Part shown: positions 13,298 through 42,222 of the stretch, piece after piece
How the letters are laid out: every line of letters starts with the position of its first letter
Numbering within the stretch: position 1 is the stretch's first letter
From: a virus
Taxonomy: Duplodnaviria; Caudoviricetes
Strand: one strand, 5' to 3'
Virus record (IMG/VR): IMGVR_UViG_3300044557_000104
Coordinates: 1-64,000 of that record
DNA: 64,000 nt
Program-made: the position numbers and the translations under genes
The notes under the pieces: generated by a model
Told to the model about the DNA's origin: nothing
What the model saw: only the letters and a program-made list of their open reading frames with translations
Database searches by the model: none

Positions 13298-13909
13298 CTA
13301 GCAACTCTTATGAATATCCTCAATACCAATATGATTTGGTTTATAATCCACATTGAATAACTTAGAAATATTTTCTAGTGAAACTCCACCGGGATTAATC
13401 ATCTCACTAATAGTCCGCTCAATGTCTTGTAACACCACAGGAACAATTTCGTCACTGCTATGATAAAGTGACTTAGCCTGTTCATTAAATGTCTTTACAT
13501 CAGTGTTAGCTCCATATGAAATAATGGGTGATCGTTTAATCTTATCCCGTAGTACCCAAGAACTAAACTTAGTAAATAAATCATTGTAATTACGTGATCG
13601 TAAGATATCTAATGGAATCCCACATTTCTTTACTGTATTAACTGTATTAGAATCTTTAACTCTAGGACTCATCACCCACATGTTAAATTGATCTGTCTTT
13701 TTACCTTTTTCATAGTACTCTGCTGAAATATTTACTGGAACCTGTGCTGTTTTATTACTACTAATATTTTCTGTAGCATATTCCATATCCACAATTGTGT
13801 AGTTCGTCATATGGTCTAATGTTACTGTTTCCATCGGTGTTGATAATAGTTTTGCTGTTCTTACTGTTTTCAATATAAATACCCCTTTTCCATAGTTATA
13901 TATTACCAC
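13298..13909 (-). pseudogene. DEDD 3'-5' exonuclease-like gene, C-terminus displaced by IS insertion (last 14 codons and stop at 11761..11805)
   Basis: VDMEY (ExoI), YG.NTD (ExoII), H.G.ED (ExoIII); in-frame continuation YINALIKSIKKARG* beyond the element. Confidence 0.7.
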
Positions 13910-19695: not shown

Positions 19696-20829
19696 CTACA
19701 TACTTTCTTCTCTTACTTTTCCTAGATAGGATAATGCCATATCTTTAATATCTGGGTAGTATTTACTACAATAGCTAGATACAATCTCAGATGTAGAAAA
19801 ATCAGAATCAATATCTAAATCTACTGTCTCTGCAATTGGAATATCTAACTTAATTTTAAAATTGTACTTATCTTTATCTAATGTTTTTAAGTAATCCTGT
19901 TGCTTAGTACTATGCACTGTAACTTGCACATAATTACTTTCCATTAGAGATAATTCTGTATCTGATAATGTTTCTTCATTATCCATGTCAATCATAATAA
20001 ATTGTGGGTAATTATCTGTAATTGGAACAAATTCATGGCTACCTGTTTCAGTATCAATCACATCAAATCCACGTTTAGTACCTACACCATTTTTATCTAC
20101 ATCATTAAAGTTAATAGGTAATAATGATCCAGTATACCAAGCAGAACGTTCATCACTATTATCTGATCCTTGCATAAACACACGGGTATGATAATGACCA
20201 AGGTTAATTGCTTTTACACTGGAATTACCCCAACCTAAGTCATTAATATTATATGATCCAGACACTTTATGTTCCCACCGTCCCTGAGACACGTTATTTA
20301 ATCCTAGGTGAGCGAAAACAATCACAGGTATACTTTCATCTACAGAGTTTAAAGCGTCTCTCACTGCTGTTTTAGACCCCTCTGTATCCTCTGTATAGGG
20401 GACAAACAACATATGGTCATACCATTGTGCTTTCTTATCAATTACTTTAATAGTACAACTGTTAGCATTGTAATCCTTAAAGATGCTTAATGAGTTAGGT
20501 TCTACATCACGTCCACTTTGATCATGATTACCCGGATTGATAATTAGTGTTCCTTGATTAGTTTTACCAATCATCTCAAACACTCTGGTTACACAATAAG
20601 CATACATACTAGGATTAATATTTGATCGTTGGTTAAACAAATCACCATTAATTATATAGGTAGAGATATTGTGATCAACTCCATATTGAAAGAACTCTTC
20701 TAAAGCATCTAATGAGTCTTTTAATCGTGAGTTAACTAATTGATTATCTGTCGGTTCTGCAAAGTTCTTAAAATTATCTAAATGTACATCTGCACACACT
20801 AATACCTTCATAGAATACCTTCTTTCCAT
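19696..20829 (-). CDS. SbcD/Mre11-like metallophosphoesterase nuclease
   Basis: DVH, GDLF, GNHD, GHYH, YTGS motifs. Confidence 0.9.
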   Translation of the reverse strand: MERRYSMKVLVCADVHLDNFKNFAEPTDNQLVNSRLKDSLDALEEFFQYGVDHNISTYIINGDLFNQRSNINPSMYAYCVTRVFEMIGKTNQGTLIINPGNHDQSGRDVEPNSLSIFKDYNANSCTIKVIDKKAQWYDHMLFVPYTEDTEGSKTAVRDALNSVDESIPVIVFAHLGLNNVSQGRWEHKVSGSYNINDLGWGNSSVKAINLGHYHTRVFMQGSDNSDERSAWYTGSLLPINFNDVDKNGVGTKRGFDVIDTETGSHEFVPITDNYPQFIMIDMDNEETLSDTELSLMESNYVQVTVHSTKQQDYLKTLDKDKYNFKIKLDIPIAETVDLDIDSDFSTSEIVSSYCSKYYPDIKDMALSYLGKVREESM

Positions 20830-20877
20830 AACTAATTATATCACAAAAACACCCCTTTATTCAAGAGGTGCTGTGAA

Positions 20878-22908
20878 TTAAATGTCTAATAGCTTAATAA
20901 TATCATCCTTAGTTACCTTGCGAGCATCTAGTTGGTGAATATGTTCTGATGCTACACCATCTGGAATCTCATCTGCTGAACTAACGATATTAGCATCTAC
21001 AATTTCAAGGACTTCATTAAGAGATGGTGTATGAGTACTCTTAAAGTCTAATACATTAATAGCATTGTCTACAACATTAATATCAGGGTCTGGCATATGT
21101 CCTCTACCAAAATCATGATTAGCCAAGATAACCTTTAACTTCCCGTCTGCCTTAGGAATCACTACTGCAAAGATTTTGGCATCTCCGTCTGCTTTAGTAA
21201 AATCAGTAGTGCTAGTAATTCCCTTTCGTGATAATGTGGCTAGGATTCCACTTGGGTCATCAATTAGATGCTCTACTGATTGCTTTTGAGAAGTGTCTAT
21301 AAAGTACTTAGCATTTTCACCATTATCACCATAATCATATAGCTGGGTAATTACAGGTTTATTTAACCCCTGCTTAATTCGGTAGGCTTCCGTTGCGTAC
21401 CCATATTTATTAGTATCAGTCATGTCACCAGAGAAAGTAATTGACTCTCCCTGATCTATTCCATTCCACCCATAATGGGTTCCATCAACATCAAACAAAT
21501 GTAAATCCAGATCAGAGTGAGTTGTCCATGAGACACCTAAAACAATATCTGATTGGTAATCAAGACTTGACATATATGGGATGTTACCCACAAAAGTTTT
21601 AGCTGATGTAGGGAAAGCATAAGTCAAAAAGTCATGTTGTGGGAAAATGAAGTAGTCCCCAGAATATTTACTAAACCGTTTTCTTAACTCATTGCTAATT
21701 AGTGTATTAGCAATTTCTCCACTTGAACGGTTATAATCAATTCCTCGATACTCATTTCTCTTCATCCAAGACTTACCATTGCGAATGTTATAAATAGAAT
21801 ATTTTGGTAAATCACCATTAGATCGGTATTTAGTGATACCTTGTAATGCTGTCACTAACTTAAAGGTACTTGCATTTTTTAATGCCTTTTTAAAATTCTC
21901 ATCTTTACCATGAATTACCCTATCATAATTTTCTCGCATATAAGTTACTACGTCATTCATAATAGGTGTTTTACGAGGAAGATAAACCTTCTTAGCTTGC
22001 TTCATAGCTCGATTGATAACCGACTTATTTTTCAGGAACTTACGGATTACTAAATATATCTTTTTGTAACGCATAATATTCATAGCCATAGAGTTAGTTC
22101 CATAGATAAAAGCATAACGGTCAATATAATCTTCGATTTTATTAGCTTTACCTTCATCAACTTCTATTTGATCTAGGGCATCACGAGTTTGTTTGTTATT
22201 AACTAGTAAGGTGCTACCAGTTGCTGTGTACACTAATAAGCGAGTAAATTCATCAAAGTTTTTTGGAACGATTCTGAACTTATCAGATAAGATCAGTTTC
22301 AATTCTTTATTCTTAATATCATCATAGATTTTATAAAGATCAATTGAACATCTGTCACTTAATACCTCAGCTACATCTACAAGAGCTTCAATATCTTCTT
22401 CTGATAGTGCAATATTAGCATGAAAACTATCAATCAACATAGCTGGTAACTCATCAGCAGTGATAGGATTGATATAGGTTAATGATTCTGCGAAGTCTAA
22501 TGCAGTGTCTAAGTCTAGCGTTTGAGGTTCATAAATATCACCAGAATTACGTAATCCTTCAATGCCACCATAAGTTGAAGCATAGTGGGCACACTGAATT
22601 AAGAAACGTTCTAGTTCTGACATTTGTTCTGCTTCATCAAACGATTTAAACAGTGTTGAGTTAGCTTCAAATCCATTAATCCCATAATTAGATTTAATAT
22701 AATCAATTACACTATCTAAAACTAAGGAATTTCCAGATAAGAATCTAATGGTACTAGGATCAATAAATACACCAATCCCTAATAGTCGCTTTGAAAAACT
22801 TTCTGCAATCTCAGATGATCTTTGTGGCTTGTCTGATACCAGTACACCTTTATATAAATGTAGCAAGTCTAATTGAAACTTAATTCCTTTTTGTGCTTCT
22901 GTGATCAT
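20878..22908 (-). CDS. 676-aa protein with C-terminal TerD-like domain (Rot / Ro60-TROVE-like + TerD family candidate)
   Basis: Large helical N-terminal part; C-terminal GVSW...DLDLH...GWN...FSGDMT TerD-like motifs; family recalled, not searched. Confidence 0.6.
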   Translation of the reverse strand: MITEAQKGIKFQLDLLHLYKGVLVSDKPQRSSEIAESFSKRLLGIGVFIDPSTIRFLSGNSLVLDSVIDYIKSNYGINGFEANSTLFKSFDEAEQMSELERFLIQCAHYASTYGGIEGLRNSGDIYEPQTLDLDTALDFAESLTYINPITADELPAMLIDSFHANIALSEEDIEALVDVAEVLSDRCSIDLYKIYDDIKNKELKLILSDKFRIVPKNFDEFTRLLVYTATGSTLLVNNKQTRDALDQIEVDEGKANKIEDYIDRYAFIYGTNSMAMNIMRYKKIYLVIRKFLKNKSVINRAMKQAKKVYLPRKTPIMNDVVTYMRENYDRVIHGKDENFKKALKNASTFKLVTALQGITKYRSNGDLPKYSIYNIRNGKSWMKRNEYRGIDYNRSSGEIANTLISNELRKRFSKYSGDYFIFPQHDFLTYAFPTSAKTFVGNIPYMSSLDYQSDIVLGVSWTTHSDLDLHLFDVDGTHYGWNGIDQGESITFSGDMTDTNKYGYATEAYRIKQGLNKPVITQLYDYGDNGENAKYFIDTSQKQSVEHLIDDPSGILATLSRKGITSTTDFTKADGDAKIFAVVIPKADGKLKVILANHDFGRGHMPDPDINVVDNAINVLDFKSTHTPSLNEVLEIVDANIVSSADEIPDGVASEHIHQLDARKVTKDDIIKLLDI

Positions 22909-22938
22909 AGTTGTATACCCCCAAGTATAATAAAATTA

Positions 22939-22971
22939 AGACCCCTCAACACATAATATGCCAAGGGGTCT
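22939..22971 (-). terminator. terminator/attenuator hairpin between leader RNAs and the 676-aa gene
   Basis: AGACCCCT/AGGGGTCT stem followed by TAATTTTATT on - strand. Confidence 0.6.
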
Positions 22972-22981
22972 CCGTATGTAC

Positions 22982-23108
22982 AGAGTACGAGACGTAGTAC
23001 ATATCCATAGTAGTTTAAATGGGAACGCCTTTGTGTACTCTTTTAGGTTGACGAGATGTAATTAAATAAGTTGTTTGTAAGTTAAAATAGGAACACCCTT
23101 GTGCCAAC
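22982..23108 (-). ncRNA. two tandem ~60-nt structured RNA repeats
   Basis: Units 23108-23047 and 23041-22982 share CACAA(G/A)GG.GTTCC.ATTT.AACT ... TAC.TCTCGT with different closing stems and variable loops. Confidence 0.75.
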
Positions 23109-23120
23109 TCTATGGTTCAT

Positions 23121-23149
23121 AGTATATCATAGTATTATTCATTTGTCAA
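23121..23149 (-). promoter_or_regulatory. sigma-A promoter for tandem RNAs and the 676-aa gene
   Basis: TTGACA-17 bp-TATACT with extended TG. Confidence 0.85.
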
Positions 23150-23913: not shown

Positions 23914-24289
23914 ATTTTATGTCCTCCACATCGAATGATACACACATGTGACTATTACGGTTGATTTGTGCTTCCTCTAAGTCTAACAATCTTGATGGAT
24001 ATAATGCTAAGTCTTCAATTCTAGGATCACTAACCTTATAGGTGATGCTAGTTGTTTCAAAGTTAATGGTGATAGACTTAGCATCTTTTTGTAGCAATAG
24101 ATCATTCTCACGACAACTTTTGTAAGTTAAATATAGTCTGTCAAACTCAAATTCAATGCTATTTACTCTAGATAAGGTAAACTCTTGGTCATCTGTTTTT
24201 ACCACAATAGATGTAATACTATCATTCAAATCTTGGTCATAATCAAACATTGGTTGATTGCCCCCTTTTCCATATAAAAAGCATACCAC
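23906..24289 (-). CDS. hypothetical protein
   Basis: ORF; likely start at internal MFDY after GGGGG RBS. Confidence 0.7.
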   Translation of the reverse strand: MVCFLYGKGGNQPMFDYDQDLNDSITSIVVKTDDQEFTLSRVNSIEFEFDRLYLTYKSCRENDLLLQKDAKSITINFETTSITYKVSDPRIEDLALYPSRLLDLEEAQINRNSHMCVSFDVEDIKYE

Positions 24290-25135: not shown

Positions 25136-26557
25136 CTGCTACATAAATCTTATAAAAACCTACTAAGCATAGTTTTATTTACTTAATAGTTAGTATCTTT
25201 ATAAGTATTTATTTACCTTCGTCATTACTAGTATTCTGACTATTATCACAGAGACAATAGCCACATTGACTAGCTCTTAAGGCTTGAGGGAGTAGCCTTC
25301 CCCTTTCATTGGATTCCCTCAATTAAATTAACTGTAATAAGTTTTGTACTGCGTTTTCATCTCTATCTATGATAGCCCCACAATTGTAACAAATATACTC
25401 ATTATGTTTAGTATGGTGTTTCTTATTCCCTTGAAGGGTTATTCTATCATCACCTTGTTTAACATTACCACATTCTGAGCATCTTTGTGTGCTAGGGTAA
25501 AACTTATCTGCTAATACTAGTCTCTTTCCATACCAATTACACTTATAGGTTAAACACTGTCTAAAGTAGCCAAACTGGGATCTTTGTAGTCCTTTAGAGG
25601 CTACATGGCTCATTTGCATATGCTTAACATCTAAGTCTTCAATACCTATAGTGTCATAGTTAGATACTAGTTTTGTAGTAAACTTATGAATAATATCATG
25701 TTGTACATTAGTTACCTTAGTATAATCACGTTGAAGTTTGGTTCTCACTTCTTGATAATTTATACTTCCATGTTTCTTTCTTGACAACATTTTTTGATAA
25801 TGCTTGATTCTATCATAGAGCTTAGCTAAACGTTTCGGTAGAACATTACAACTACCTTCTGTGTAATTCAAGTGTCCAACATTCACATCTACTGCTGTAC
25901 TCTGATTGGTCTTAGGTTTGCTAGGAATATCCTCTACTTTATAGGGAATAGAGGCATAATATTTACTATTGACTCTATAGATAGAGATGGTACCATAATC
26001 ATAATTTAGGAGGTTACCCCTTACTTTAATATCATACCAAATAGACTTATTATCTCTAGGCTTATCCAGCCTAAGTTTGCCTTTAATAAACTTAATTCTA
26101 TCTGATTTAAACCCCTGTCTAGGAGCTTTCTTAGACTTAAATTTGGGCTTGCCCCAATCAGGTAATGACTTATCAAAGAAATGCTTCCAAGCATTACCTA
26201 AGTCAGAAATTCCCTGCTGTAGCACTCTAGCAGACAGAGCATACTGCCAATCTTGCTTGTTAGCTACTAAGTAGTCTCTAACTTTATATTCACTAGGGCT
26301 AGGATTATTATCTTTATCTAGTAAGTGCAAATTATACATCTCATTCCATGCTTCTAAGCCTAGATTCCAACAATACCTTCGATAGTCACAAAGCCTATCT
26401 AATTCCTTAGTCATATGGCTATTAGGGTATAACCTAACTGTTATTGTTTTTACATACACTATTCTCACCTTCTTTCCAGATAATAACAGTGTAGCATACT
26501 TAATAGATATTATCAAGTTTGTAGACTATTTTATAAATAATTAGTTACAGTTCACAG
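25136..26557 (-). mobile_element. non-autonomous IS607-like (tnpB-only) element
   Basis: No end hairpins; LE GCTGTGAACTGTAACTAA and RE ...TTTATAAGATTTATGTAGCAG resemble IS607 ends; AG dinucleotide at both junctions; no serine recombinase gene. Confidence 0.65.
25323..26516 (-). CDS. tnpB: RNA-guided endonuclease TnpB (IS607-type)
   Basis: VRLYP HTH, RYCWN, PKFKSKK; RuvC D (AVDVN), E (IEDL), D (DRDENA); zinc finger; likely GTG start near 26459. Confidence 0.93.
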   Translation of the reverse strand: MIISIKYATLLLSGKKVRIVYVKTITVRLYPNSHMTKELDRLCDYRRYCWNLGLEAWNEMYNLHLLDKDNNPSPSEYKVRDYLVANKQDWQYALSARVLQQGISDLGNAWKHFFDKSLPDWGKPKFKSKKAPRQGFKSDRIKFIKGKLRLDKPRDNKSIWYDIKVRGNLLNYDYGTISIYRVNSKYYASIPYKVEDIPSKPKTNQSTAVDVNVGHLNYTEGSCNVLPKRLAKLYDRIKHYQKMLSRKKHGSINYQEVRTKLQRDYTKVTNVQHDIIHKFTTKLVSNYDTIGIEDLDVKHMQMSHVASKGLQRSQFGYFRQCLTYKCNWYGKRLVLADKFYPSTQRCSECGNVKQGDDRITLQGNKKHHTKHNEYICYNCGAIIDRDENAVQNLLQLI

Positions 26558-34183: not shown

Positions 34184-34257
34184 AACAGATATGCCAAAAT
34201 CTTTCTATATTATAACTAGTAAGATAATTTATAATTCAGAAAGGTTCTCGATAAGGA

Positions 34258-36115: not shown

Positions 36116-36535
36116 GTGAGTAACCGTTTAATTGATGGAATTAAAAATGAGATTGATGATACTAAAGATGAAACTACCATTACTAATGTTAAAAAGACTA
36201 TTGAGTTATTATCAGGTCGGTTACTGCAACAGGCATCAGAGGGTACCATTGATTTAGATATTAAAGATTTAAAAGACCTAACGTCAGTTCTAGCTATGTT
36301 GAAAGATTCTGGTGAAGATAATGGCCAAATGGGTACTCCACCTGTAAGTGGTAGGATGACTGTTTACTTTAACTCAGCTTTAAATGGTCAGAAAGATAAC
36401 CCAGAACAATCTGATGATGAAACCGATATTAGTCAAGGCTTGGAAGATATGTCTGAGGAAGATGTCAACAAAATGCTGAATGCTCAGTTTGAAGAACAAA
36501 ACAAAGAAAACTTTGACAAAAATAATGAAGCGTGA
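36116..36535 (+). CDS. putative terminase small subunit
   Basis: Position before terL; acidic helical protein of typical size. Confidence 0.6.
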   Translation: MSNRLIDGIKNEIDDTKDETTITNVKKTIELLSGRLLQQASEGTIDLDIKDLKDLTSVLAMLKDSGEDNGQMGTPPVSGRMTVYFNSALNGQKDNPEQSDDETDISQGLEDMSEEDVNKMLNAQFEEQNKENFDKNNEA

Positions 36536-36745
36536 TATACTATAATCAAGTTGATAGATAAACCTTTTACATTATAATATCGTGCTAATTAAGTCATAAT
36601 CTTATCTATTAACCTAGTAGTAATACTTGTTGGAGCAGGTGTTACTATGAATTGTGGCAGGTATTCAATCGTTAAGATACTTGGCATTTTTGAAAACTCC
36701 TTTTTATTGATTGCAGAGAAGAGACTGTGTGAGGTCTCTTTTTTG
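36513..36745 (+). ncRNA. sRNA unit 1 (promoter + hairpins + anti-RBS segment + terminator)
   Basis: TTGACA-17-TATACT; CAT-TTTTGAAAA-CTCCTT at 36685-36702; AGAGAC/GTCTCT terminator plus T tract. Confidence 0.7.
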
Positions 36746-36762
36746 TTTGCCTGAATAAATAG

Positions 36763-36909
36763 TTGACAAAACATTTAATTCATGCTATTATAGTACTTGT
36801 AGATGAGTAATATCATCTACACTTGCTGATTTTCATGATGTTTGTTTTCAACCTATTTATATTTTTCCTCTACTTTGCCTTCCCCTTGTGTGCAATGTAG
36901 AGGTTTTTT
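36763..36909 (+). ncRNA. sRNA unit 2
   Basis: TTGACA-17-TATTAT; 5' hairpin TGTAGATGA/TCATCTACA; pyrimidine-rich tract with CAT; CCTCTAC/GTAGAGG terminator plus T6. Confidence 0.7.
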
Positions 36910-36918
36910 GTGCTATAA

Positions 36919-37091
36919 TTGACATTTTAAACAGATCATGATATTATATGTACATGGTAGGATGTTAATACATCTCATAGGGGTAAACCGCATACTACCT
37001 ATGAACTACCATTACAACTCATGGTTGTATACCTCCTTTTCCATAATATAGTTTACACTGCGGTTGGTATCCCACTTGGGGTACCTTTTTT
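36919..37091 (+). ncRNA. sRNA unit 3
   Basis: TTGACA-17-TATTAT; branched 5' hairpin; CAT-GGTTGTAT-ACCTCCTT at 37020-37038; GGTATCCC/GGGGTACC terminator plus T tract. Confidence 0.75.
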
Positions 37092-37153
37092 AATACTGTG
37101 GTGTTGCTATATTATAAATTACAAACAAATAAGTAACAGAAAGGATTGATAAA

Positions 37154-40100
37154 TTGAATGGTAAACAACTAGATTCTATGATTAGAGATACCTTTAATCT
37201 GGGGTCTAACGATCCAATTACACCAAAGCAATTGAACTATGTAATGGGACTAATGGTACCTTCTAACTACTTGTTGCAGAACCATACTATTGATGGTAAG
37301 CCAGTGACTTACAACATTCCTAACCGTAATGAGAATATGGCACGAGGACATCGACCTTGGCAGGTAGATATAATTAACGATATGAGTAAAAATTTGGTTG
37401 TTATCAAAGGTCGCCAAATGGGTTTAAGTGAAGTTGGTATAAGTCAAATGATATGGTTCGCAGATACACACTCCTATGACCACGTGAATTGTCTATATGC
37501 TTTTCCTAAGTAAGATGTGGGACTTTTAGGAGCAATCCTAATTGAAAAACTCTGTTAAACGGGCATAGCCAAGATAACTACTATATAAACAATAGGCTGG
37601 TAAGAAAGACTAAATCCCAATAGTAGGGGACAGAGTTAATCACCGTAGTAAATCAGTATTGTATTCGATACTGTAAATCTCTAGAGACTAAATTTCTAGG
37701 TAGCTACTAAAATGGTAGTAGTAAGAACTAGATAAGAAAAATTTTAACAGAGGTAATCAATATGCCTAAATTTAAGACACAAGATGAATTTATAAATGAT
37801 GTTTATGCTAAATATGGTGATCAGTTTTCTGTTATTGGAAAATACGTTAGAAGTACTACTCGTGTAAGAATTAAGTGTAATGTATGTGGATATACATTTG
37901 ATGCTATGCCAAATACTTTGCTCACTAGAGGACGAGGTTACAAATGTAAGAAGTGTCTGATGAGTAATCCTAATTATGCTAATGAAGTATATAAGGAGTA
38001 TAATGGTAAATTTTCTGTTTTAAGTAGTTACAAGGGTTGTGATACACCTGTTTTATATAGATGTAATGTTCATAATAAGGAGTTTAAAATGAAACCAACT
38101 TCCTTTAGAAGATCAAATTTTAAATGTCCTGTATGTAAATATAACCACGCTACTGAAAAGCAGAGAAAAACAGACACCCAATTTAAGTCAGAGTTGAATA
38201 AAGCACATCATGGTAGAATAATTGCGCTTGATAAATATGTTAACACACATACTAAAATAAAATTCAAGTGTACTGTATGTGGAAGTGTATTTTGTACTGA
38301 GCCAAATGCTGTTTTGAGAATTAGCGGATGCCCAAAGTGTTCTTATAGTACTGGTGAAACTATTATAAAAGACTTGTTTGATGATGAAGGTATTGATTAT
38401 GAGTCACCAAAGAAGTTTCCAGATTGTGTATATAAAAGGCAATTGCATTTTGACTTTTACCTAGAAAAGTATAACCTTCTTATTGAATTTGATGGGGAAC
38501 AGCATAATAAAGCTGTTGACTTCTTTGGTGGGGAGGAATACTTAAAAGATTATAAAATACGAGATAGTATTAAAAATGAATATGCTATTAAAAATAATAT
38601 TAATTTAATGCGTATACCATATATTAGAGATAAAAATGAAGTTTGCAAAATAATAATGAACTTTATTAAATATAAATCATCAGATTACCTTGTTAATAAA
38701 TAAGTAAAGCAGAGACTCTTATACCAAAAGTTAAGAGTAAGAGATAGTCCACTCCCTAAATAAATATTGGGAAACCAAGGGTATAAAGAACATATAAGCA
38801 AATGAACACATTCTACAAGCAACGTCTAAAGCCTGAGTTTACATCAGGTGGGTATTATAGTAGTTTGGTAGATGAAAAGCATGGAATGTCTATGGATCAA
38901 ATGAACATTAGAGATTCGTCAGTAACATTCCGTACATCAAGTAAGGGAGCAAGTCTTGAAGGACTCAAGGTTGACCTTGCTTCGTTGGATTTATAATAAG
39001 TCCAGTATTGTAGTAATATAATAATATAAACACTGTTAAACGGGCATAGCCAATATAACTACTATATAAACAATAGGCTGGTAAGAAAGACTAAATCCTA
39101 GTAGTAGAGGGCAGAGTTAATCACCGTACTAAATTAGTAGAAATACTATACAGGTCTAACGACTATCGAACAGGGAGTTAATTAAATGGAATTAACAAGA
39201 CTTAGTAGAGTAAAACTCATAGTAATATGAGAGGAAAAGCAGTGAGTCCTACACCAAAAGGTAGGATTAAGAGATAGTCTAAACCCTAAATAAATATTGG
39301 GAAACCAAGGGTACTAATTGGAATATGACAGATTGAGTCCTTTAGCTGAGCAATCAGCTATTCAATCAATGGCATCATCTAAGTATCAATTACTAAGAAG
39401 ATGGTCAACGCCTACAACAAGCCACTATGGTATCCACAAATTGTTTGAACAATCAGATCAACGATTCTGGACTCATAAATGCCCACATTGTGGATATTGT
39501 CAAGTAATGGATTATGATAAAAATATTAAACTTCTTAATAAAGATGGTATTGATGTCATTGGTAAAAAAGTATACCCTGGAACCTTTCAATATGTTTGTC
39601 AGAAATGTGGTAAGCCACTAGACAGATGGTATGACGGATTTTGGGATATTACATCACCCGGTGATGGTGGTCGTGCTCATGGGTACTCACTATCACAAAT
39701 GGACTGTGTGTGGATCAGTGCTTCAAAACTTAAAGAATCTGAAATGAATGCACCAAGTAAATCATACTTCTACAACTATAGTTTAGGTCGCCCATATCAA
39801 GATGATAGTTTATCCTTTAAGAGTGCAGATGTTTATTCTCACATTGCAGACTATGATCGTCCATTTGATAGAAGCAACTACACCCTAGTATCCGCTGGAA
39901 TTGATTGGGGTTAAATCTTAGCTCCACTATAGAGTAATCTATAGGAAAATAAAACACTGTTAAACGGGCATAGCCAATATAACTACTATATAAACAATAG
40001 GCTGGTAAGAAAGACTAAATCCTAGTAGTAGAGGACAGAGTTAATCACCGTAGTAAATCAGTAGTATAATAAATACTGTAAATCTCTAGAGACTATCGAA

Positions 40101-42222
40101 CAGGGAGTTAATTAAATGGAATTAACAAGACTTAGTAGAGTAAAACTCATAGTAATATGAGAGGAAAAGCAGTGAGTCCTACACCAAAAGGTAGGATTAA
40201 GAGATAGTCCAAGCCCTAAACAAATATTGGGAAACCAAGGGTATAAACTGGAGCACAATCATACCCTTACCATAATGGGAATGACTGATTCTGGTAGAAT
40301 TGATTTTATGCACCTCAAGGAAATTCCAAGAGCATTAGGTGCTGAGCATATTGAGGAAGACTTAGATATGGTTGTTAGAACCCTTAACCAGTTTGCACCA
40401 GATATCATAATTGCCGATAGAGGATTAAATTAAGTCCCGTACAGAAGTAATTCTGTATGTAAAACCATGTTAAACGGGCATAGAAAAATAGCTACTATAA
40501 AAAACAATATTCTGGTAAGAAAGACTAAATCCTAATAGTAGAGGAAAGAGTTAACCTACCGTGCTAAATCAGTATTATAATTAATATTGTAAAAGCCTAG
40601 AGACTAAATTTTTGGATAGCTATACAAACAGGTGTAGTGAAAACCAAATAAAAGCATACCTTTCTATATTATAAGTATATGGAAATTATATTTATAAACT
40701 TGGAAGGTGAATTGCATTACTAGAAGACGAACGAATGAAGAATTTATTGCTGAGGTTAAAGAACTTGTAAATGACGAGTACACCTTTCTAGACGAATATG
40801 ATGGTGTTTTAACTAAAATTAGAATTAAACATAATAAGTGTGGTCATGTGTACCTTACAACACCTAATTCATTTATTAATGGTGGTTCAAGGTGTAATAT
40901 ATGTAAGTCAAAAGAAGCAGGTATAAAGAAAACAAAGGATACAGAATGGTTGAAGCAAGAAGTATATAAAATAGCAGGTGACGATTATTCTGTTATCGGT
41001 GAATACCATATGGCCAAATATAAAGTAAAGCTAAAACACAATGTCTGCGGAAATACTTTTGACATGACAATAGGACATTTTAGGAGTGGTGAACGATGTC
41101 CAAGGTGTAGCTATAAGAAGCGTGCTAAGCAAAGAATGAAGACCCAAGATGAATTTAAAAGAGATGTATTAGATACATTAGGCCCTAAATATACAGTTAT
41201 AGGAGAGTATAAAGGGGATTCCATCCCTGTAGAAATAAAGCATTCATCCTGTGGAAAATCATATTTTGCCATTCCCTCCGCAGTTAAGCAGAGGTCAAAC
41301 ACATGTCCTTATTGTAGGCCATATCATGGGGAAGAATTTATAATGAATTGGTTAGACCACAATAGCATTGACTACGAAGTTCAAAAGAAGTTTTCTGATC
41401 TACGTGATTCTAAACCCCTAAGCTATGATTTCTTTATTCCAAAGGATAAGATACTGATCGAATATCAAGGGGTACAACATTTTAGACCAACTACGCATTT
41501 TGGCGGAGTACCCAGATTTAAAGTTCAGAAAAGACATGATGATATAAAGAGAGAATATGCAGTAACTAATGGGTACACCCTAATAGAAATTCCCTATACT
41601 TATAAGTCATATGAATCAATAGCAACGTTTTTAAGTAATGCAATAAATGTGTAAAGCATGGATACCATACCTAAAATTATGGTATAAGATATAGTCCAAA
41701 CCCTTAATAAATACTAGGAAACTAGGGGTATAAATTGTTAATGGTAATTATGTGGACAAACTCATTAAGTACTATGGTGAAGGAAGAGTATATGGTTGCA
41801 TTGTTAGATCGGCTAAGACTAATAATGATCCAATAGCTCACTTCACTAATACTGATGTCACCATAGATAAGTTGACACAAAACCTAATTATGTTGTCAAA
41901 CCTCAAACGTGGAGAGATTCATTTCTGGAGAGGGTCAGAACGGGATAAAGATATTAGAACATTAATTGCTCATTGGAGTAATGTTGTATTTCGTACTGAT
42001 GAAAAAGAAGATCCAGATACTCACGAGATTGGAACGCAACAGGTTATTCTAAGAAAAGGGCCAGATCATGCAGCTCAGAGCCAATGTTATGCAAATGTTG
42101 GTCTTAATAAGTTAATGCACGACTATGCAGAACGTAATAGTAATAAGACTGAGGTTTCATTATTGAGTACTGATCTAATTGCACCAGAAAAGACCTCTAT
42201 TCAACGTGAATATGATCTATAA
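37154..42222 (+). CDS. terL: terminase large subunit, 5 exons (37154-37507, 38790-38990, 39321-39911, 40251-40425, 41738-42222; 601 aa spliced)
   Basis: RPWQ, KGRQMGLSE, YAFP|TYKQM, SLD|EYD (Walker B), WSTPT, IDWG|EHNH, ADRG F NGNY, GPDH; exon lengths sum to 1806 nt. Confidence 0.92.
37508..38789 (+). mobile_element. group I intron 1 of terL with homing endonuclease ORF
   Basis: P1 U-G wobble (TCCT/GGGA), core GAGACTA / GATAGTCC (P7), shared 5' core and 3' tail with introns 2-4. Confidence 0.9.
37762..38703 (+). CDS. intron-encoded homing endonuclease (Zn-ribbon repeats + Vsr-like/PD-(D/E)xK domain)
   Basis: Repeated C..CG...CP.C units; FDFYL...LIEFDGEQH...K..YA..NNI.L.RIPY. Confidence 0.85.
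   Translation: MPKFKTQDEFINDVYAKYGDQFSVIGKYVRSTTRVRIKCNVCGYTFDAMPNTLLTRGRGYKCKKCLMSNPNYANEVYKEYNGKFSVLSSYKGCDTPVLYRCNVHNKEFKMKPTSFRRSNFKCPVCKYNHATEKQRKTDTQFKSELNKAHHGRIIALDKYVNTHTKIKFKCTVCGSVFCTEPNAVLRISGCPKCSYSTGETIIKDLFDDEGIDYESPKKFPDCVYKRQLHFDFYLEKYNLLIEFDGEQHNKAVDFFGGEEYLKDYKIRDSIKNEYAIKNNINLMRIPYIRDKNEVCKIIMNFIKYKSSDYLVNK
38991..39320 (+). mobile_element. group I intron 2 of terL (ORF-less, 330 nt)
   Basis: P1 TGGAT/GTCCA; ends in G; splicing joins Walker B D|E. Confidence 0.92.
39912..40250 (+). mobile_element. group I intron 3 of terL (ORF-less, 339 nt)
   Basis: P1 TGGGGT/GCTCCA; ends in G; near-identical to intron 2. Confidence 0.92.
40426..41737 (+). mobile_element. group I intron 4 of terL with homing endonuclease ORF
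   Basis: IGS ATTAAGTCC pairs with ligated GGAT|TTAAT; ends in G; internal late-promoter motif at 40664. Confidence 0.92.
40707..41654 (+). CDS. intron-encoded homing endonuclease (same family as 37762)
   Basis: H..CG...CP.C repeats; YDFFIP...IEYQGVQH...KREYA. Confidence 0.85.
   Translation: MNCITRRRTNEEFIAEVKELVNDEYTFLDEYDGVLTKIRIKHNKCGHVYLTTPNSFINGGSRCNICKSKEAGIKKTKDTEWLKQEVYKIAGDDYSVIGEYHMAKYKVKLKHNVCGNTFDMTIGHFRSGERCPRCSYKKRAKQRMKTQDEFKRDVLDTLGPKYTVIGEYKGDSIPVEIKHSSCGKSYFAIPSAVKQRSNTCPYCRPYHGEEFIMNWLDHNSIDYEVQKKFSDLRDSKPLSYDFFIPKDKILIEYQGVQHFRPTTHFGGVPRFKVQKRHDDIKREYAVTNGYTLIEIPYTYKSYESIATFLSNAINV

Follow-up and report, generated by a model that had tools for sequence, protein, structure and literature searches.

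A modular array of three predicted small RNAs in the terminase gap of a herellevirus-like phage, with complementarity of one member to the phage's own gene starts

The terS-terL gap and its three units

The window considered here, the whole 64-kb stretch of DNA that was analysed, forms the start of a 118,436-bp virus record (GC 35%). Judged from its sequence, the phage is herellevirus-like, and its lifestyle looks lytic. The nearest herellevirus to exon 1 of TerL is Lactobacillus phage LfeInf (56%), and its endolysin and TnpB suggest Lactobacillaceae, the top TnpB matches being in Secundilactobacillus and Lentilactobacillus; a CRISPR-spacer search for the phage host found no spacer. The gene for the small terminase subunit, terS, is followed by a gap occupied by three consecutive promoter-RNA-terminator units, after which terL begins at 37154. 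In LfeInf, and in relatives with a 66% identical TerL, terS directly abuts terL, and the array is therefore regarded as a lineage-specific insertion at this site. The features of the locus are as follows.

36116 to 36535, plus strand: terS, terminase small subunit (PHROG 1063, E 5.5e-14)
36513 to 36541, plus strand: sigmaA-type extended promoter P1 (pattern and genome-wide promoter score)
36548 to 36745, plus strand: predicted unit 1 RNA, about 200 nt (fold z -4.1; three hairpins)
36763 to 36791, plus strand: promoter P2 (pattern and genome-wide promoter score)
36797 to 36908, plus strand: predicted unit 2 RNA, about 110 nt (fold z -4.8; 5' hairpin)
36919 to 36947, plus strand: promoter P3 (pattern and genome-wide promoter score)
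36953 to 37091, plus strand: predicted unit 3 RNA, about 140 nt (fold z -2.9; three-way junction)
37107 to 37119, plus strand: late-promoter-like motif, also found upstream of structural genes at 34205, 43877, 46013 and 50194

The motif at 37107 would restart transcription for terL behind the three terminators. The terL gene itself (37154-42222) is interrupted by several introns, two of which carry HNH-type endonucleases (37762-38703 and 40707-41654). Elsewhere in the window, an Rfam Transposase-1 RNA match lies at 25222-25282 (minus strand), at the end of a TnpB-like gene.

The three extended promoters that the initial annotation had placed at 36513, 36763 and 36919 are all present, in the form TTGACA-17-TGn-TAnnnT, with the TG of P1 supplied by the stop codon of terS. 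This strict pattern occurs seven times in the genome vs 0.3 times in shuffled genomes, and P1, P2 and P3 are three of the six highest-scoring sigmaA-type promoters in all 118,436 bp. The division of each unit into promoter, hairpin and terminator also holds, since every predicted RNA folds better than 200 of 200 shuffles (z -4.1, -4.8 and -2.9 for units 1 to 3) and each 3' end consists of a hairpin and a U-tract. An unbiased genome-wide scan for promoter, non-coding stretch and terminator returned the three units of the array and a leader at 23149 (minus strand), and nothing else. The units each have their own promoter and an intrinsic terminator and no conserved ORF, as expected of trans-acting antisense sRNAs. 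Searches of Rfam with units 1 to 3 gave no family at the gathering score, the best low-stringency match (E 0.06) lying far below it.

Two of the units read as the antisense of a translation start, as had been proposed, with the CAU of unit 3 in a hairpin loop. In unit 1 the anti-SD/anti-AUG stretch (36685-36712) is predicted to be open and is followed by the terminator (36721-36745). In unit 3 a hairpin conceals the anti-spacer and anti-AUG portion, while the anti-SD/anti-leader toehold (37031-37050) is open, with predicted unpaired probabilities mostly of 0.75-1.0; the terminator occupies 37066-37091. Furthermore, a unit 3 loop at 36986-36992 is the perfect 7-nt complement of 37059-37065 (chance 0.002), a possible pseudoknot. 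Unit 2 contains a U-rich single strand and a C-rich terminator loop, and its anti-start, described from the outset as the weaker version, is weak indeed, with 12-nt spacing. A 17-nt stretch of unit 1 (36605-36621) is identical to genome positions 103534-103550, an intergenic hairpin region and not a gene start.

Modularity and conservation among sister strains

The array was compared with a sister set of 11 further contigs, whose TerS or TerL falls in the same 90% clusters and which cover the gap partly or fully. Three of these retain unit 3 alone, owing to a clean deletion that runs from one promoter to another. In a fourth, an inserted element and a ferritin-family gene come after unit 1, and a fifth carries an element inserted within unit 1; the earlier suggestion of a modular cassette is borne out by such arrangements. 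TnpB omegaRNA-like mini-elements (L359:1330-2355, L360:800-1130 and L136:380-520), recognised by eye from their ends, were seen in or beside sister sRNA loci and inside the analogous unit of phage Lb338-1. In L359 a ferritin/Dps-family gene sits after unit 1.

Across seven sister contigs, 0-2 of the 139 nt of unit 3 are changed, vs 23-26 of 420 nt (about 6%) in sister terS and about 7-20% in the spacers. Compared directly, 1/139 vs 26/420 gives a Fisher p of 0.006, and a second strain gives p 0.04. Unit 2 differs at 2-8 of 112 nt in the sisters that cover it completely. Unit 1 diverges by about 9-11%, its stems being kept in five strains mostly through one-sided changes, with one compensatory pair.

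The units had been taken as non-coding, with a 32-aa minus-strand ORF named as the product whose conservation would speak against this. That ORF is only 4 codons long in five of the five sisters tested and, being truncated in all of them, is not a conserved product; the other two minus-strand mini-ORFs of the array are 7 codons each. An antitoxin of a type I toxin-antitoxin pair was rejected on the same grounds. A packaging role like that of pRNA, of which AACC/GGUU loop pairing and a position between the terminase genes are reminiscent, was likewise set aside, given that a protein TerS is present and that relatives lack the array. By these sequence measures, the array is a real, selected and modular sRNA array.

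Complementarity to gene starts in this phage and in its relatives

Every position on both genome strands was searched for contiguous helices with unit 3. The best helix genome-wide falls on the start of a gene for a 676-aa Rot-like/TerD-like protein, with the AUG in register opposite the CAU. The third-best lies at 117157 (plus strand), at the start of a 207-aa nucleotidyltransferase-like gene, where 17 bp with an upstream extension are predicted, again with the AUG in register. Four regions in the window are of interest.

22905 to 22922, minus strand: start region of the 676-aa Rot-like/TerD-like gene (22908), 18 contiguous bp (2 G-U) with unit 3
24261 to 24274, minus strand: sigmaA mRNA leader (gene at 24250, 114 aa, function unknown), pairing with the unit 3 toehold over 14 bp
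13882 to 13894, minus strand: sigmaA mRNA leader (gene at 13873, 191 aa), pairing with the unit 3 toehold over 13 bp
20811 to 20830, minus strand: leader of a gene for an SbcD-like nuclease, which matches unit 3 less well and with a bulge

For the genes at 24250, 13873 and, with a bulge, 20811, the sequence complementary to the toehold stands at the very 5' end of the leader, from the predicted +1 onward. The SbcD-like match is absent from one sister strain. The 676-aa protein has no Pfam, PHROG or PDB match and only weak TerD/Prok-RING_4 neighbours, so that the Rot label is a tentative one. Directly before its gene (22925-23149, minus strand), a top-scoring promoter leads into a structured, terminated leader of about 180 nt (z -3.4), conserved in two sister contigs.

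For ten other herelleviruses the top-5 mean helix of unit 3 lies between -13.1 and -15.9 kcal/mol, vs -20.1 kcal/mol at the phage's own starts, three of which outscore every one of the 1,823 starts from those ten phages (foreign best -17.6). None of 300 shuffles of unit 3 that retained the anti-SD and CAU attained the best or the top-5 value. With gapped duplexes and opening energies, the same four own genes head the unit 3 ranking, but on this accessibility-corrected score the own best (-20.2) is not separated from foreign values of -21.9, -20.5 and -20.3. The preference for own starts therefore depends on the contiguous-helix metric, the gapped score letting foreign starts match, and exact 10-mer counts show no bias of unit 3 toward own starts. 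For units 1 and 2, own starts are not favoured over foreign ones. The comparison of each seed with the full phage genome, proposed in the initial annotation, gave a mixed outcome: unit 3 stands out in the contiguous-helix and shuffle tests but not in gapped net energy, and the other two units do not stand out.

In a sister strain whose Rot-like start has diverged by four substitutions, pairing with unit 3 is still predicted (-26.4 vs -29.6). Random substitutions manage this in 0.5% of cases under a null that ignores SD selection, and one of the four substitutions improves the SD regardless. One sister strain shows drift in two of the target leaders. No compensatory change between unit 3 and its targets was seen in the sisters, covariation of seed and target being invisible because unit 3 itself is invariant.

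A blastn search of 50,697 phage records yielded chance matches, with the exception of a 25-nt similarity to the promoter and 5' end of unit 2, which led to an analogous unit in Lactobacillus phage Lbab1.

Lbab1 40127 to 40380 (L132:2483-2732): unannotated promoter-RNA-terminator unit beside terL

This unit, with a predicted RNA of about 215 nt, is retained in Lb338-1 (49164; predicted RNA about 300 nt). The 9-mer CAAGAAAGG occurs 12 times in Lbab1, in 11 early-gene leaders and, as antisense, within the terL-adjacent unit; it is found just once in the present phage, and the leader motif of unit 3 marks no Lbab1 leader. The observed match of the Lbab1 unit to its own leaders was attained by 4 of 300 shuffles. 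In LfeInf, a 97-nt unit after the portal gene fits nine own leaders vs 1-6 foreign ones, a count reached by 0 of 300 shuffles (7 of 300 reach the top-5 mean), and it appears to match its own early leaders more weakly than the Lbab1/Lb338-1 unit does. From the own-leader matches in the present phage, Lbab1 and LfeInf, it would follow that the seed of these analogous, though not necessarily homologous, RNAs tracks each phage's leader in three genera. The portion of the seed that extends beyond the 16S tail (4-6 nt) differs among the phages and follows each phage's own leader.

A 67-nt LfeInf unit and a unit of Lpa804 show no preference for own starts, and no clear analogue came out of the scans of LP65, SAC12B, 3-521, K, A9 and AVP. 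Relatives sought in IMG/VR and metagenomes yielded only distant terminases, and a scan for the generic promoter-plus-anti-SD pattern returned 94 loci. Unannotated units made up of promoter, RNA and terminator were also noted in LfeInf at 38759 (plus), 44670 (plus), 21803 (minus) and 21668 (minus) and in Lpa804 at 78248 (minus), and several of them contain an anti-SD stretch; the two adjacent minus-strand LfeInf units have a common terminator.

Proposed role, alternatives and comparison with known systems

Because unit 3 is complementary to the ribosome-binding regions of several early genes, its probable role is to switch off early-gene translation. The reading that we favour, at a probability of about 0.5, is that it acts as an antisense RNA in trans to shut off early translation in the phage itself. 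Host sigmaA polymerase would transcribe the modular cassette of three small RNA genes, with unit 3 as the core module, a trans-acting antisense RNA expressed against a set of own early/middle mRNAs. In vivo, pairing would start at the open pyrimidine toehold, which would bind the shared short leader and SD, and the duplex would then zip into the adjacent hairpin (unzipping about 6 kcal/mol) to cover spacer and AUG. Repression would result from the blocking of 30S loading by the duplex over the start. As RNA and targets have a common promoter class, the timing of the switch would rely on stable-RNA accumulation: the stable, structured unit 3 would build up and later damp its targets, in the manner of an incoherent feed-forward timer. 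In this scheme units 1 and 2 would probably be accessories to unit 3 that act in the same way, on mRNAs of the host or of other phages.

The initial annotation had each RNA aimed at a different mRNA, for example of defence genes, a view that gained no support: unit 3 fits several own phage mRNAs instead of a single host mRNA. Its wider form, in which the main job of the RNAs is to silence defence or metabolic mRNAs of the host, or else mRNAs of competing phages, is considered rather unlikely. In its favour, no own start is fitted by unit 1 or unit 2, whose targets may therefore be external, and the variable presence of these two units would suit host-specific targets. In a scan of 401 Lactobacillaceae genomes no defence-gene target emerged, and units 1 and 2 had no significant target. 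The unit 1 core gave 12 matches in five gene families, about as many as a rough count of start sites predicts; in eight genomes the core matches the start of a DEAD-box helicase gene. The best host pairing of unit 1 (-42.9 kcal/mol) is with the start of the leuA attenuator leader peptide in one Lentilactobacillus genome. It was rejected as a significant target, since 36 of 2,352 pattern-conditioned controls (1.5%; about 7% over five independent hits) reach it, five related leu leaders are without the match and the energy falls to -38.5 with the commoner unit 1 allele; the pairing may be taken as only a lead. A leucine-rich leader-peptide attenuator upstream of leuA is kept in at least six Lentilactobacillus genomes (L190:1340-1540, minus strand; L193-L198). 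None of the host matches of unit 2 falls on a gene start preceded by a ribosome-binding site, and the 17-mer of unit 3 occurs in 4 of the 401 genomes vs 2 for its control, which is chance level.

It is less probable still that unit 3 acts through its fold, the three-way junction and pseudoknot, as a ligand or decoy for a protein such as the Rot-like protein or a host factor, its complementarity being the relic of an inverted gene start. The near-invariance of the entire unit 3 body, beyond the seed, would agree with this, as would the possible 7-bp pseudoknot and the resemblance of the minus strand to a promoter, leader and ATG; in addition, the Listeria herellevirus CKA15 has abundant non-coding RNAs beside an Rsr-like gene (PMC12282133). 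A relic, however, is not expected to fit several leaders, or to turn up again in Lbab1 and LfeInf matched to another leader, and unit 3 has no Y-RNA or other Rfam match. Identity as a bacterial Y RNA (Yrl) was rejected on this last ground and because 14 kb separate the array from the Rot-like gene, which is preceded by a structured leader of its own (23149, minus strand).

Generic mimicry of the 16S rRNA 3' tail, in which the RNAs titrate strong SDs and the fit to own leaders merely reflects the strong SDs of the phage, is judged improbable to a slightly greater degree. The cores of unit 3 and the Lbab1 RNA equal the Firmicute anti-SD, part of each seed corresponds to the 16S tail, and the gapped score fails to single out own starts. 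On the other hand, shuffles that keep the anti-SD core fall short of the observed values, the 4-6 nt outside the 16S tail are phage-specific, and two own genes are paired in register through both spacer and AUG, all of which speak against mimicry. Lastly, that the array consists of minus-strand mini-genes or inert promoter/terminator debris is very improbable, for although the minus strand has SD-ATG pairs and a late-promoter-like 9-mer, this 9-mer is about as frequent on minus strands as chance predicts, the ORFs are as short as given above, the plus strand keeps its strong promoters and its terminators across strains, and the conservation of unit 3 exceeds that of terS.

More tentatively than for unit 3 itself, the favoured reading might be extended to Lactobacillus herelleviruses in general, which would carry phage-specific anti-leader sRNAs in the packaging/structural module, each fitted to the private early-gene leader of its phage, as an off-switch for early translation, here expanded to an exchangeable three-RNA array whose accessory members would hit host mRNAs, for example an amino-acid attenuator leader.

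Among known systems, c4 antisense RNA of P1/P7 is likewise a phage-encoded, structured RNA that acts in trans, pairs at the ribosome-binding site of its phage's own mRNA and blocks translation (PMC12197685). It serves one antirepressor mRNA of a temperate phage, whereas unit 3 fits several unlinked early/middle starts of a lytic-looking phage, from within a tandem array whose units have their own promoters and terminators. The array units have no match to the c4 RNA Rfam families.

The sar RNA of P22 overlaps its single target on the opposite strand. In common with the array units, sar and lambda OOP, the latter classed as cis, are small promoter-terminator RNAs whose pairing represses phage mRNA (PMC12197685). 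OOP, too, overlaps a single opposite-strand target, whereas the array units lie 12-80 kb from their putative targets and would pair imperfectly.

LhrC and the Rsa/RNAIII RNAs of S. aureus achieve Hfq-independent repression of multiple targets through unpaired anti-SD pyrimidine motifs. These Gram-positive C-rich-seed sRNAs (LhrC is cited in PMC12282133) differ from the array in being host-encoded and serving host regulons, and no sequence or Rfam relation connects them. Expressed herellevirus non-coding RNAs have been reported in phage K (PMC9241854; overview PMC10383478) and CKA15 (PMC12282133), for which neither a common anti-leader motif nor a tandem array is described. Unlike the array units, the CKA15 RNAs are without intrinsic terminators (PMC12282133), and unit 3 has no sequence match to phage K. 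The phage sRNAs reviewed to date have single phage mRNAs or host mRNAs as targets and belong largely to temperate phages (PMC12197685), and herellevirus transcriptome papers present non-coding RNAs without function (PMC9241854, PMC10383478, PMC12282133). No anti-leader sRNA or tandem array in herelleviruses was found in our literature search.

Sigma-factor switching and protein inhibitors so far account for the shut-off of early genes and of those for host takeover in SPO1-like lytic phages. A multi-target anti-leader RNA, if true, would add a translational layer to this shut-off. The analogue in cultured Lbab1 and Lb338-1, whose host belongs to the L. casei group, makes the proposal directly testable and is the best experimental handle, while the array units themselves may offer compact, Hfq-independent antisense scaffolds for lactobacilli.
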